Notes: generated by a model not told the origin, from the sequence alone. A stretch of 63,302 bases of DNA, filler included, from 7 parts of 7 records of this genome joined end to end with filler, not necessarily neighbours in it, one strand, 5' to 3'. Numbered from the whole stretch's first letter, positions 53,013 through 58,595 are shown. Made by a program: numbers and translations.

Positions 53013-53693
53013 CTGCATGGCAGCGTTGTCCACATACATATGGGACAGCTCGATATCCGGGTAATTCTTATGCTCATCAATAACGATTTCGCGCCAAACG
53101 CGTGAAACATCCAACACGTTGGCCTTGTCCACGGAACAAACGCGGCTTGAACGCTTACGGGCGGCTTCAAAAGCCACACGGGCAATGCGACGAATTTCAT
53201 GCTCATAATATGTCATGGTGTTATAGCCAAAACGCTCACCATCTTTTTCGCCATCAAAACGCGGTTCGCCAAAATAAATGCCACCAGTCAACTCACGCAC
53301 AACCATGACGTCCAATCCTTTGGCCACGATATCCGGACGCAAATAACAAGCGTCAGCCAACTGCTTAAACAAATTGGCGGGACGTACGTTGGCGAACAAG
53401 CCCAATTCTTTACGAATGCCGAGCAACCCTTTCTCAGGGCGAATGGACGGATCAATGGTATCCCATTTAGGACCACCCACCGCGCCAAGCAATACGGCAT
53501 CAGCGTCCTTGCATTTGGCAATTGTTTCGTCTGGCAGGGGAACGCCATCAGCGTCAATCGCGCATCCACCAATCAGGGCCTCAGTGGTCTCAAAGGTCTG
53601 CCCGTATTTCTCTCCGACCTTATCCAAAACACGCAAGGCTTGAGTAACTATTTCCTGCCCTATGCCGTCACCCGGCAAAACACATATTTTCAT
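53013..53693 (-). CDS. leuB: 3-isopropylmalate dehydrogenase, 3'-truncated
   Basis: [31 protein letters not shown]. Confidence 0.95.
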
Positions 53694-53714: not shown

Positions 53715-54206
53715 TTAGGCCAATTTCTTCTTGACGTATTCCACGAGTCCACCGACATCCAGAATTTCTTGCATAAACGGCGGAACAGCGGCGGCCTGTA
53801 CGGTTTCGCCTGTGGTGATATTTCTGATTACACCAGTGGTGGTATCAACTTCAATTTCATCGGTATCATTAAATTTCTCAATATCATCGCCGATCTCAAG
53901 CAACACCAGGCCCATATTGAAACCGTTACGGTAGAAAATCCGGGCAAAACTATGAGCAACAACCACAGGAATTCCTGCGCCCAAAATGGAAATAGGGGCA
54001 TGCTCACGAGAGGAGCCACAACCGAAGTTCACGCCTCCGACCATAACGTCGTTTTCTTTAACACGTTTGACCCAACCGGCCTCCAGACCTTCCATACAGT
54101 TCTCACCGAGCACCTTGGAATCGGTGGTCACTAAGAAGCGAGCGGGAATGATGGCATCTGTATCTATATGGTCGCCCACTTTATGAGCAGTTCCGGTAAC
54201 TTTCAT
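53715..54206 (-). CDS. leuD: 3-isopropylmalate dehydratase small subunit (start ATG 54206)
   Basis: [29 protein letters not shown]. Confidence 0.95.
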
Positions 54207-54219
54207 TTTATTCCCCCTC

Positions 54220-55479
54220 CTACAACTTTCCGGGGTTGGTGATCTCACCCACAATGGCACTTGCAGCGGCCACAGCGGGATTGGACAAGAAGACTTCCGC
54301 TTCGAGAGACCCCATACGTCCCTTGAAGTTGCGATTGGTAGTCGCGATACACCGTTCGCCGCCAGCCAAAATACCCATATGGCCGCCCAGACAGGGACCA
54401 CAGGTCGGAGGACCTACAATACAGCCTGAATCCATAAAGACTTCCATCAAACCTTCACGCATACACGCTTTCCAAATGGCAGGAGTGGCAGGCAAAATAA
54501 TGCAACGCACCTTGGGATCAACTTTGCGACCTTTCAAAATGGCTGCAGCCACACGCATATCTTCGATACGACCATTGGTACAGGAACCGATGACCGCCTG
54601 ATGAATCTGCAAACCACTGGTCTCATCAACGGATTTCACATTGTCCGGCAAATGTGGGCAAGCAACCTGCGGTGCCATATCTGTGACGTCAATATTCAGC
54701 ACGCGTTCATATTCAGCATCAGCATCCGGTGCCATCAATTCTCCGCCAGAAAATCCAGCTGTCTTGGCGTATTCCATTGTTTTCTCGTCCACTGGGAACA
54801 ATCCAACCTTGCCGCCGGCCTCAATGGCCATGTTGGCAATCGTCATACGCCCTTCGATGGACATGTTGTCCACAACTTCACCGGAGTATTCAAGCGCCTT
54901 GTAAAGTGCACCGGCAACCCCAAGCTGCCCAATTTGATTCAGAACGAAATCCTTGGCACTGACATGTTCACTGGGTGTACCGGTAATATTCACCTTGATA
55001 GTCGGTGGCACTTTGAACCATGTTTCCCCCAGAGCCATTGCCGCACCGATGTCCGTCGATCCCATGCCGGTGGCAAATGCGCCAAGTCCACCATAAGTGC
55101 ATGTGTGGGAATCTGCCCCCACCACCACATTACCAGGACCGACAATGCCCTTCTCAGGCAACAACGCATGTTCTACTCCGACTTCACCACATTCATAGTA
55201 ATGGGTCACACCCAATTCTTCAGCAAACTCACGAACCACCTTCACCTGTTCAGCAGAATCAATATCCTTATTTGGAGTGAAATGATCACAAACCAACGAG
55301 ATTTTGTCCTGATCAAACACTTTTTTTGCACCCATAGCCTTGAAAGACTTGATGGCCAATGGCGCAGTGATGTCGTTGGCCAGAACCATATCGACCGCAC
55401 ACTGGACAATCTGTCCTGCACCGGCAATCTCTTGGTCTGTGTGTTTCTGTAATATTTTTTCAGCTAAAGTCTGACCCAT
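54220..55479 (-). CDS. leuC: 3-isopropylmalate dehydratase large subunit
   Basis: [26 protein letters not shown]. Confidence 0.95.
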
Positions 55480-55482
55480 GGT

Positions 55483-57015
55483 CTATCTCTCCTCTTTGGC
55501 TTTTTCCATACGATTCAATGCGTTGATCATAGCGAGAGCACTCGCCTTGACCACATCGGCGTCATTGGCGCGCCCAACGGACCGAGTCCCATCGTGCGCG
55601 ATACGAACCGCCACGCTTGCCAAGGCGTCGGACCCTTCGGTTACGGCATTTACTGTGTATACTTCGAGTTTAGGAGCCACACCTACCATTGAGTAGATGG
55701 ACTGGAACACCGCGTCAATGGAACCTTCACCAAAACTGCTGTTTCGTTTGACTTCGGCCTCACCTTTGGCGCCGAATTCCATAACTGCGGCAGCATGCGG
55801 CGGGACGTCACCCGTACCGGAAAACACTGACATATCAATCAAACGGAAACGATCTTTACGACGATATACGGATTCCAGAATTAAAGCTTCCACGTCTTCA
55901 TCAAAAACCTGCTCCTTTTTATCGGCCAAATCCTTAACCGCCTTGAAAAGCACTTGGATCTGCTCCTCATCCAAAGTGTACCCCAGCTCCTCGGCTTTCT
56001 TTTTAACCGCATGAGAACCAGAATGTTTGCCGATAACAATATCATTACTTGTCCGGCCAATGGAATCCGGGGTCATAATCTCATACGTCAAACGATTCTT
56101 GATGACACCATCCTGATGAATACCGGATTCATGAGCAAAAGCGTTGGCACCCACAATTGCCTTGTTGGGCGGAATGGGCATGCCTATAATCTGCGACAAA
56201 CGACGGCAGGAAGGATACAATTGCTCGGTTTTAATATTGGTCTCGACATTGTACAACTCCTTACGGGTGTTGATCGCCATGACCAAATCTTCCAAGGCAG
56301 CATTCCCCGCCCGTTCACCAATCCCAAGCACTGTGCACTCAACCTGACGAGCACCCGCTTTGACCGCAGCCAAAGTGTTCGCCACAGCAGAACCAAGATC
56401 GTTGTGGCAATGAACAGACAAAATCGCGTTGTCCACGTTCTTTACGTTATCCTTCAAATATTTAATCAAATCATAATATTCAAAAGGCTGGGTGTACCCC
56501 ACTGTATCTGGGATATTAACGACCGTCGCACCGGCCTCAATGGCAACCTCAGTTACCTTGACCAAAAAATCCCAGTCCGAACGAGATGCGTCCTCAGCGG
56601 AGAACTCCACATTATCCGTATACTGCTTGGCGTGCCTGACGGCTTTGTCGATCATGACGATCACTTCATCAGCAGTCTTACCCAATTTGTGTGTCATGTG
56701 AATTTCACTGGTAGCGAGAAATGTGTGAATTCGCGGATTTTTCGCATCTTTCACAGCTTCCCAGCAACGGTCAATATCTCCAACAACGGCCCGGCACAGT
56801 CCAGCAACCTGCACAGTGTCCACAGCTCGAGCAATGGCTTGGACCGCCTCAAAATCGCCTTGACTGGCAATAGGAAATCCTGCTTCGATGACATCAACAC
56901 CCAATGTTTCAAGCTGTTGGGCCATGCGGATTTTCTCATCCTGATTCATGGTTGCGCCAGGGGACTGCTCGCCGTCACGCAAGGTGGTATCAAAAACGTA
57001 CACTCTGTCTGCCAT
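55483..57015 (-). CDS. leuA: 2-isopropylmalate synthase (start reassigned to ATG 57015)
   Basis: GGAGG SD; FDTTLRDGEQ, HCHNDLG, HESGIHQDG; C-terminal regulatory domain. Confidence 0.96.
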   Translation of the reverse strand: MADRVYVFDTTLRDGEQSPGATMNQDEKIRMAQQLETLGVDVIEAGFPIASQGDFEAVQAIARAVDTVQVAGLCRAVVGDIDRCWEAVKDAKNPRIHTFLATSEIHMTHKLGKTADEVIVMIDKAVRHAKQYTDNVEFSAEDASRSDWDFLVKVTEVAIEAGATVVNIPDTVGYTQPFEYYDLIKYLKDNVKNVDNAILSVHCHNDLGSAVANTLAAVKAGARQVECTVLGIGERAGNAALEDLVMAINTRKELYNVETNIKTEQLYPSCRRLSQIIGMPIPPNKAIVGANAFAHESGIHQDGVIKNRLTYEIMTPDSIGRTSNDIVIGKHSGSHAVKKKAEELGYTLDEEQIQVLFKAVKDLADKKEQVFDEDVEALILESVYRRKDRFRLIDMSVFSGTGDVPPHAAAVMEFGAKGEAEVKRNSSFGEGSIDAVFQSIYSMVGVAPKLEVYTVNAVTEGSDALASVAVRIAHDGTRSVGRANDADVVKASALAMINALNRMEKAKEER

Positions 57016-57065
57016 GATGTCCTCCGATTCTTCCCCTTTTATAGGGGGATTCAGTCTATGATTGC

Positions 57066-57213
57066 AAATATAGAAAATCGCCAAACGCACCGAATGCGTG
57101 ACGATAAGGGTCAGTACGACGTACCAATATGGGAGTGAGGGGATGAGCTAGTTGAGCTCTTCTTCCTTTGAACTATCCCTATGTAGTCGTTTGTTTCTGC
57201 GGGATAGTAGGAA
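57066..57213 (-). promoter_or_regulatory. Putative leucine-responsive attenuator overlapping the pssA 3' end
   Basis: Cluster of three CTA codons, alternative stems and a terminator-like hairpin directly before leuA (see findings). Confidence 0.5.
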
Positions 57214-57921
57214 AATAGTGTAGAGAGGGCCGGAAATAATATAGCCCAAGAAAATAACGAAGCCGAGAACCTTGGGGCGCGATGCGACCAAAGAAAAAAT
57301 CAAAATAGCCGTGACCATCCAGCTAAAAGGATGGGCCTTAAAAGAACTGAGTTCCTTGAAGGAATAGAAACGAACTGTGCTAACCATAAAGAAGGACAGC
57401 ACATACACTAATACCAATGCACCGGTGGGCATAACCGAATGAATATACTCTGCGGGGACATATTCGGAAAAAAGCACCAAAGTGGCAAGGGTGCAGGCTG
57501 CCGCAGGAATGGGCAGACCTACAAAGTGCTTCTTGGATGTAGTGGCGGCCTGAACATTAAAACGGGCCAACCGAAGGGCTCCACACGCCATGAACAGGAA
57601 AGCGGCCATAAGACCGAGTCTGCCATAGTCATTCAGTACCCAAAGATATGTCATGACTGCCGGGACCACACCAAAGGCCACCAAGTCAGCCAAGGAATCC
57701 AACTGGACTCCAAACTCACTGGTGGTATGGGTGATACGCGCGACCTTCCCGTCCAATCCATCGAACACACAGCTTGCCAGAATGCACAGGGCACAGGAGG
57801 CAAAATCCCCCTGAATAGCCCATGTCAATCCCAGAAAACCAATAAACAAACTGGCCGTAGTCAGCAGGTTCGGCAGGAGGTAGACGCTCTTGTGGCGCGG
57901 CAATTTTCTTTCTTTAACCAT
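57148..57921 (-). CDS. pssA: CDP-diacylglycerol--serine O-phosphatidyltransferase
   Basis: LPNLLT, DGLDGKVAR...FGVQLDSLADLVAFGVVP, RLARFN. Confidence 0.96.
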   Translation of the reverse strand: MVKERKLPRHKSVYLLPNLLTTASLFIGFLGLTWAIQGDFASCALCILASCVFDGLDGKVARITHTTSEFGVQLDSLADLVAFGVVPAVMTYLWVLNDYGRLGLMAAFLFMACGALRLARFNVQAATTSKKHFVGLPIPAAACTLATLVLFSEYVPAEYIHSVMPTGALVLVYVLSFFMVSTVRFYSFKELSSFKAHPFSWMVTAILIFSLVASRPKVLGFVIFLGYIISGPLYTIFLLSRRNKRLHRDSSKEEELN

Positions 57922-57953: not shown

Positions 57954-58595
57954 CTAACGCTTTTCAGCCAGAGGAGTTTCGCCTGCGACGACCTTCTGAC
58001 CGACGCTGACAGTTGGTACATAGCCATCAGGCATGTAAAGGTCAACTCTTGATCCAAACTTGATCAAACCATACCGTTCACCGCGTTTGAGCTTATCGCC
58101 GGGTTCAGCCCAGCAGACGATACGTCGAGCAATGAGGCCGGCAATCTGAACCATGGTAAACCGCTGATTGCCCTTGCCGGTGATAACCACAACGTTACGT
58201 TCGTTGTCTTTGCTTGCTTTGTCAAAGGAAGCATTAAAAAACTTGCCGGGAATGTAACGGATGACTTCAACCTTGCCGCTGACCGGCATACGGTTCACAT
58301 GCACATTGAACACATTCATAAAGATGGCGACAACTTGACGTTCTTCGCCGGAAATCGGATCGGTTTCACGTGTGACCTTGATCACTTTGCCGTCTGCAGG
58401 AGAACACACTGCCTCGGCATTCTCTGGACCAACCCGTTCGGGATCGCGAAAAAAATGACCAATAAAACACGTCAGGCCAAGCCCGATAATAGCCATAGGC
58501 CAGCAATCTATCAAAGCAAAGATCAAAGTGGTAAACGCAGAAATGATAATATAAGGCAGCCCTTCGAGAGCAACACCGACAGAAGGTTTCAACAT
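57954..58595 (-). CDS. psd: Phosphatidylserine decarboxylase proenzyme
   Basis: FFRDPER, SPADG, NVHVNR, FGSRVD self-cleavage motif. Confidence 0.95.
   Translation of the reverse strand: MLKPSVGVALEGLPYIIISAFTTLIFALIDCWPMAIIGLGLTCFIGHFFRDPERVGPENAEAVCSPADGKVIKVTRETDPISGEERQVVAIFMNVFNVHVNRMPVSGKVEVIRYIPGKFFNASFDKASKDNERNVVVITGKGNQRFTMVQIAGLIARRIVCWAEPGDKLKRGERYGLIKFGSRVDLYMPDGYVPTVSVGQKVVAGETPLAEKR

Follow-up and report, generated by a model that had tools for sequence, protein, structure and literature searches.

A putative leucine gauge in the tail of pssA upstream of leuA in Desulfovibrionales

The last contig piece of the 63,302 nucleotide (nt) stretch of DNA analysed here, hereafter the window, carries psd-pssA-leuA-leuC-leuD-leuB, identified with NCBIfam, and this report concerns the end of pssA, where a gauge of leucine supply for the leuA-leuC-leuD-leuB genes may lie. 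All features described are on the minus strand. The first gene of the presumed transcript, psd (57954..58595), encodes phosphatidylserine decarboxylase and was assigned from its open reading frame (ORF) and a match to NF003678 above the cut-off. It is followed by pssA (57148..57921), which encodes a 257 aa phosphatidylserine synthase (TIGR00473, 131.5 bits; cut-off 107) and is proposed to serve as a leader as well. A spacer of 132 nt separates pssA from leuA (55483..57015), the gene for 2-isopropylmalate synthase (NF002086 and TIGR00973, both above cut-off), whose Shine-Dalgarno sequence, GGAGGA, was read at 57020..57025. leuC (54220..55479) matches TIGR02083 above cut-off, as leuD (53715..54206) does TIGR02087; TIGR02084 gave the top score for leuD yet fell below its own cut-off. 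leuB (53013..53693) is cut by a run of N at the contig end, and the remaining 227 aa piece scored 343.7 bits with TIGR00169. The nearest named relatives are Pseudodesulfovibrio, with PssA identities of 83–89%, and genome G215, whose PssA is 100% identical to that of the window, was used as a proxy for codon usage and tRNA content. Elsewhere in the window (10696–53012), six paired N-runs lie between pieces of differing codon usage, which look like contigs of several organisms.

The pssA gene in the window has 38 Leu codons. CTA is absent from the first 34 and accounts for three of the last four, the final one being CTC, and the codon list is in exact agreement with an earlier account made from the sequence alone (the sequence-only reading), which had reported no CTA in the first 34 and three near the end. 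Two of the three form a CTA-CTA pair at codons 238–239 (57205..57210), which is invariant in 11/11 aligned rows, lies inside the first of three pairing RNA arms described below, and flips the modelled fold when a ribosome is stalled on it. The third, codon 246 (57184..57186), is part of a second Leu pair, which holds the main sensor position of the order. That position is 9–10 codons upstream of the stop, and the window's codon in that column is CAT. The tail CTA codons all come after the last hydrophobic stretch of PssA. If CTA makes up 3–4.8% of Leu codons, the binomial probability of at least three CTA in four lies between 1e-4 and 4e-4, for a region picked post hoc. Among the Leu codons of G215, CTA is used least (2.7% of 4042 in 102 sampled genes), pssA is the only sampled gene with at least two CTA in its last 20 codons, and the approximately 140 Leu codons of psd, the pssA body and leuACDB include none. 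An Rfam search found a single tRNA-Leu(TAG) among seven tRNA-Leu, with typing covering the 12 long tRNAs of 64.

To place the window in its order of sulfate-reducing bacteria, 301 Desulfovibrionales genomes were searched, 297 of which had pssA, and 276 were analysed after 21 near-redundant or already included genomes were removed. pssA was linked to leuA in 242 and unlinked in 30, with four undetermined. With the tail defined as the last 30 codons, CTA was found in the tails of 208/242 linked pssA vs 4/30 unlinked ones, and the four exceptions are AT-rich genes that have CTA in the body too. CTA makes up 39% (506/1312) of tail Leu codons in linked genes, 5/102 in unlinked genes and 0.8% (62/7864) in the bodies of linked genes. 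A named set of 80 loci gave the same picture, with tail CTA in 44/48 linked vs 1/29 complete unlinked genes; two truncated pssA and L019, where a damaged leuA precedes leuC, stand outside these counts. The sequence-only reading had proposed comparing pssA ends with and without leuA behind them, and both sets support its claim that the rare Leu codons of the tail are tied to leuA; across the order they appear to be selected and in frame. The arrangement is present in the named cultured strains L002, L003, L007, L013 and L020. In L019, only a C-terminal piece of leuA remains before leuC, 290–420 nt past the pssA stop, and the CTA tail is retained; this could reflect a deletion or a misassembly.

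The CTA trinucleotide occurs 504 times in frame in the tails and 28 and 207 times in the other two frames. From body to tail the A-ending share of CTN codons climbs from 0.010 to 0.462, and other A-ending codon families barely change, save CGA, which often comes right after CTA. Each sensor locus has 1 to 5 tail CTA codons, whose positions vary and which are all in frame, and the main tail column (233 linked loci) has CTA in 183 and CTG in 20. Frames entered by a shift at CTA end at stops that are not conserved (read by eye). The third base of 507 tail CTA was predicted to lie opposite U in 220 cases and to be unpaired in 287, so CTG would keep the structure equally well. Together, these comparisons indicate that the tail CTA is a codon signal that is Leu-specific and in frame. 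Retention of CTA as a partner in RNA stems or as a DNA element, such as a TACTAT −10 box, and not as a codon, would fit the pairing of tail CTA with bases near the stop in 129/208 loci, the greater structure of tails relative to controls and the predominance of CGN as the next codon. It is nevertheless very unlikely, as the frame bias is strong, G-U would preserve the pairs, the codons are always in frame despite their varying number and position and are in frame again in stand-alone ORFs (see below), and no −35 sequence lies upstream of the window's TACTAT. Slowing of the ribosome by rare codons for membrane insertion or folding of PssA itself would account for their place after the last hydrophobic stretch. 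We find this scarcely credible, because CTA is absent from the last 25 codons of 27/30 pssA that do not precede leuA, and loci served by a separate leader have lost their tail CTA.

Several results weigh against so close a tie between the tail codons and leuA. Neither a tail CTA nor a leader was detectable in 25 linked genomes. Tests that take the tree into account are less strong than the raw numbers: a paired test based on gene order only and confined to supported branches did not reach significance (p 0.125; of 6 pairs, 4.0 same, 0.1 opposite and 1.9 tied), and a version giving p 0.008 is partly circular, as nine loci with stand-alone leaders were counted as unlinked. Over all branches, 12 comparisons went in the same direction, two in the opposite direction and four were tied, with sisters shared between pairs. 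The main conditions that the sequence-only reading had named as refuting it did not hold, though the strictest version of the tree-based test is underpowered. Avoidance of CTA in the pssA body counts in favour of the gauge: in three AT-rich genomes with the sensor, CTA forms 5.6–10.5% of Leu codons, yet the pssA bodies have 0/31, 0/34 and 0/31, the corresponding figures for two sensor-less genomes being 6/30 and 3/27. Against this, psd and leuA avoid CTA too, so the avoidance is not specific to pssA, and we rejected it as a pssA-specific signal.

Ribosomes could reach the tail codons by translating all of pssA or from a nested start. A short leader nested in pssA, with its own promoter and an in-frame start in the last 50–60 codons, would share the frame with the enzyme and not its ribosomes. 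Consistent with such a leader, the window and 118/208 sensor loci have Met202, His197 favours CAT (150 vs 50), and the stand-alone leaders of relatives are similarly short. Against it, Met202 is as frequent in loci without the sensor (40/60), a start preceded by a Shine-Dalgarno sequence is found in the last 90 codons of 27/208 sensor vs 9/60 non-sensor loci, and promoter-like sites in the last 130 codons (94/208 vs 34/60) are scattered in position. In addition, the largest synonymous anomalies, N-terminal codons aside, are the tail Leu columns, and CTA is avoided in the pssA body. As no conserved internal promoter or start was found in Desulfovibrionales pssA (208 sensor vs 60 non-sensor loci) and Met202 shows no link to the sensor, full-length translation is the likelier source of the ribosomes and we consider a nested leader improbable. 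The 132 nt spacer also has no dedicated short leader ORF, and the sequence-only reading was correct that the window lacks a separate leader. On these comparisons we infer that the intact, full-length PssA gene carries the control codons and acts as the leader.

Separate leaders do occur in relatives. Nine of the 34 linked loci without tail CTA have a long spacer holding a short ORF that ends in CTA, as does the named locus L018, and in 7/10 of these a TTGACA-like site lies upstream of the leader ORF. leuA was located in 23 of the 30 unlinked genomes, and in 15/23 it is preceded by a short ORF that starts with ATG and has CTA in its last 12 codons, compared with 22/219 control genes taken from other genomes of the set. 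Three further relocated leuA have Leu-rich leaders without CTA. Stand-alone leaders are 15–50 codons long. The sensor module, judged from its distribution, is one that tracks leuA, not pssA, and after separation of the two genes the gauge often appears to return as a separate mini-gene ahead of the leucine genes. Leaders or spacers of L279, L282, L285, L287 and L369 align at the DNA level with the pssA tail or spacer of sister taxa, the alignments of L285, L287 and L369 running from CTA onward; the L370 region aligns with L338 and the L371 region with L187, and L386 passes only narrowly. No DNA homology to pssA tails was detectable for 19/27 stand-alone or relocated regions. A tree of PssA from which the tail was left out shows the fused state across its whole breadth, with stand-alone forms lying inside fused groups at several places. 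The root is only the row most distant from the rest, so the direction from fused to stand-alone is inferred. At five outgroup leuA loci, in three of the five genomes that lie behind L048–L059, we found no CTA leader; these loci sit behind another isopropylmalate-synthase-like gene, by eye cimA. Use of such codons is not confined to leuA, as in 4/5 genomes a second ilvB is preceded by a leader of the classical type, which contains CTA and GTA codons and has a terminator-like hairpin behind it; this indicates that the order uses codons of this kind as gauges elsewhere.

Some of the individual leaders have features of their own. The ilvB leaders (L465, L466, L467 and L468) are Val/Ile/Leu peptides located approximately 400 nt upstream of the gene, with a TTGAC-like site before them and a GC hairpin and T-rich run after. 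L374, L377 and L378 have Leu-rich stand-alone leaders with no CTA and then terminator-like hairpins. In L384, L385, L388, L389 and L390, leaders 40–50 codons long are basic at the N-terminus and have a hydrophobic stretch ahead of CTA, resembling a mini membrane protein. The spacers of L187, L188, L189, L217 and L219 follow tail CTA codons with a strong terminator and a second short ORF, which has 3–4 CTA and ends approximately 66 nt upstream of leuA; the arrangement may be two-tiered. In L183, L214, L328, L330 and L341, the pssA tail is rich in CTA and the spacer has a conserved short ORF containing a single CTA. In L371 (G285), a segment 260–380 nt upstream of the relocated leuA aligns with L187-clade sequence from the pssA tail and spacer, and the genome's own pssA groups elsewhere; the leu operon may have been transferred horizontally with a remnant of the tail.

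Around the pssA stop in the window, folding predicts two overlapping arrangements of three RNA arms. Arm 1 (57201..57215), which includes the first control-codon pair, pairs with arm 2 (57172..57190) in ribosome-free RNA, and arm 2 can instead form a 14-pair stem with arm 3 (57116..57136), which is conserved in 11 rows. A small hairpin spans the stop codon (57145..57159) and overlaps a C-rich, G-free tract (57131..57147). A 6 bp hairpin (57112..57126), with all six pairs kept in 31/31 rows, excludes the stem between arms 2 and 3. Further downstream are a GC hairpin (57105–57077) with a T-rich tail (the whole at 57066..57105), whose stem is conserved and whose tail is not, and a TCCCC/GGGGA hairpin (57032..57049) directly before the leuA ribosome-binding site. 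The stems named in the sequence-only reading, namely an 8 bp stem between arms 1 and 2 with its extension across a 4 nt bulge and the latter two hairpins, are all in the minimum-energy fold. The fold of the region is on its own no more stable than chance (z −1.76; 12/200 shuffles as good), and Rfam gave no match for it at E<=10. The perfect form of the 8 bp stem is specific to the window; only its TCCC:GGGA core is invariant (31/31), and there is no compensatory change. The ATCCC at the stop, which had been put forward as the alternative partner of the GGGAT arm, gives way to a conserved partner made up of the second C-run (57136–57131) and 57130–57116.

In the model of free RNA, arms 1 and 2 are paired, the C-tract is open and the 6 bp hairpin is formed. 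With a ribosome on codons 238–239, arm 2 and 57136–57116 form the 14-pair stem, and the unpaired probability of the C-tract falls from 0.92 to 0.33. Among 33 loci of the window's genus, which include a few duplicates, pairing of arms 1 and 2 wins in 22/33 free RNAs and the stem between arms 2 and 3 forms in 33/33 stalled ones. That stem has 93.5% of cells paired and two pairs with changes on both sides in 11 rows. Folding and this limited covariation are consistent with mutually exclusive stems that overlap the control codons, although the stem between arms 1 and 2 has no compensatory change.

How such a switch might reach leuA is the weakest step. The sequence-only reading had assigned this role to an intrinsic terminator at 57105–57066, and here it did not hold: the hairpin was present in every modelled ribosome state, a terminator scanner made no call there and the T-run is not conserved in relatives. 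Order-wide, canonical terminators were found in only 12/200 spacers, and in equilibrium folding one of the 12 was switched. We therefore rejected switching of an intrinsic terminator. The Shine-Dalgarno sequence of leuA in the window also showed no switch, with opening energies of 5.8, 5.5 and 6.3 kcal/mol for free RNA, a stalled ribosome and a ribosome at the stop, respectively. As Rho sites are C-rich, G-poor and unstructured (PMC8346122), two features point to Rho-type termination as the best guess. The 30 nt past the stop are C-rich in 95/207 CTA loci vs 5/28 and 4/30 in controls, and for the window's genus folding predicts that a ribosome stalled on the first CTA pair buries the C-tract in the covarying stem. 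Under this scheme, the C-tract would be a candidate Rho loading site, transcription would end before leuA when it is open, and burial would allow read-through. We regard this as a tentative choice that falls somewhat short of probable. A factor-assisted hairpin terminator is a less likely output, and translation control is about as doubtful, as is RNA cleavage or some other route.

A number of findings count against this chain from stall to output. The stem between arms 2 and 3 was predicted without a stall in 11/33 loci of the genus, and the C-tract in the window is only 17 nt, which is shorter than the usual length of Rho sites. As general mechanisms, we rejected both a Shine-Dalgarno switch, since the sequence opens on stalling in 74/186 loci and also in 12/17 controls without CTA, and burial of the post-stop tract, which across 207 loci of the order becomes less open in 24 and more open in 32. 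Two modelled loci of the L332–L213 clade, L349 and L366, go in the wrong direction, as stalling brings the tract into pairing with the Shine-Dalgarno sequence. In other clades the sensor seems to be coupled to different outputs, an anti-Shine-Dalgarno helix being one example. In the L143–L179 clade we found such a helix together with two exclusive helices, one of them 12 bp long with three changes on both sides; the 12 bp helix formed in 23/34 free and 34/34 stalled RNAs, and Shine-Dalgarno pairing dropped in only 12/33. In L332, L340, L364, L366, L346, L359 and L213, the post-stop C/U tract equals the Shine-Dalgarno run of leuA length for length (by eye), and a TTGTCA-17-TA site lies between the two.

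The tail might matter little if leuA were transcribed mainly from a promoter in its own spacer, the CTA hairpin then tuning read-through or occlusion, or the 3′ end or stability of the psd-pssA message. TTG-C-17-TA sites downstream of the sensor, a pattern chosen post hoc, are present in 43/200 spacers vs 5.1±2.2 in shuffled ones, and this too weighs against the tail as the control point. A spacing of 17 was found in 26 loci and each other spacing in no more than five, 11 loci of the Pseudodesulfovibrio clade have the site, and the relocated L376 keeps one and has no leader. On the other side, the site is absent from the window and from 157/200 spacers, the CTA module tracks leuA rather than pssA, and in L282 and L369 a promoter-like site precedes the leader while the downstream site is present as well, a layout that fits a basal promoter combined with regulated read-through. 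We judge a spacer promoter as the main source of leuA transcription to be unlikely, and the promoter-like sites may give basal expression. The sequence-only reading had listed an independent spacer promoter as a point that would speak against it; some relatives provide such sites and this window does not.

Returning to the tail codons, a leucine gauge built into the pssA tail and feeding leuA-leuC-leuD-leuB is probable on the comparative evidence. Ribosomes on full-length pssA would be the gauge, with CUA, the rarest Leu codon, read by the single-copy tRNA-Leu(UAG) in G215. A ribosome would stall on the tail CUA when leucine is short, as it does in the classical leu attenuator, and would thereby occupy the RNA arm containing these codons. 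Arm 2 would then be free to pair with arm 3, burying the C-tract past the stop in the window's genus, and transcription would read through into leuA. When leucine is plentiful, the ribosome would finish and be released, arm 1 would pair with arm 2, and the open tract could load Rho. We lean slightly towards a broader reading, in which an ancestral, order-wide gauge in the translation of a lipid enzyme acquired clade-specific outputs (Rho-type, Shine-Dalgarno occlusion or intrinsic termination) and was repeatedly cut loose as leader peptides.

If this is true, the origin of leader peptides could be traced to the tail of an ordinary gene, with fused and stand-alone forms in one order providing a natural series, and completion of PssA would itself be delayed under leucine shortage. 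Optimising the codons of pssA, or adding a C-terminal tag to it, could affect leucine synthesis, and the named cultured strains with the arrangement allow direct testing. Because attenuator searches target short leader ORFs, they miss a gauge at the end of a full-length gene, and such hidden leaders may be common. We found no description of a leucine gauge in a pssA tail in the full-text literature, subscription papers, attenuation surveys and supplements being outside reach. The control of leucine synthesis in Desulfovibrionales was not covered in searchable papers.

The enterobacterial leuL-leuABCD system is a leader-peptide attenuator with rare CUA control codons. It resembles pssA-leuA in having these codons upstream of leuA and overlapping, mutually exclusive RNA stems, and differs in that the leader here is the gene for a 257 aa membrane enzyme, there is no switched intrinsic terminator and Rfam gives no match. 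The pssA tail is a translated ORF with cognate codons just upstream of the operon, and a dedicated short leader is found only in the relatives with stand-alone leaders. As the window has neither a short leader nor a switched terminator, we did not file pssA-leuA under leuL. A comparative study of delta-proteobacterial regulation mentions neither leuA nor a leader in its main text (PMC545781).

In Escherichia coli rph-pyrE, translation of the full-length gene upstream provides the ribosome, and the place where that gene stops is important; pyrE answers pyrimidine levels through coupling of transcription and translation at a terminator loop and does not sense an amino acid through cognate codons (PMC2784333, PMC4166923). 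An intact full-length gene is the leader there, as it appears to be here, so a leader of this kind has a precedent, albeit one that senses nucleotide level at a U-rich terminator, without cognate codons, where pssA has Leu codons. The actinobacterial LEU element has a dedicated short leader and a pseudoknot, with Leu codons paired directly to the Shine-Dalgarno sequence (PMC1262725). It too has a Leu-codon ORF upstream of leuA and no classical terminator, and its Shine-Dalgarno pairing resembles that of the L143–L179 clade, whereas folding without pseudoknots found no conserved helix or switch between Leu codons and the Shine-Dalgarno sequence in the window's genus. In Salmonella mgtL-mgtA, a Rho site is masked or made accessible as the RNA refolds under the influence of the ribosome (PMC8346122). 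The model favoured for the window's genus, though not order-wide, likewise toggles a C-rich, G-poor tract between open and paired; mgtL is a dedicated leader that responds to Mg and proline, while pssA-leuA has no dedicated leader and another signal, and a role for Rho would be by analogy. Finally, in Chlamydia ytgCR a triple-Trp motif in a full-length gene affects how much YtgR repressor is present and so acts in trans, and starvation promotes termination (PMC7755916). Both systems would place amino-acid-sensing codons inside a full-length protein gene to control a biosynthetic operon, but pssA would act on the genes directly downstream, and starvation would favour their transcription.

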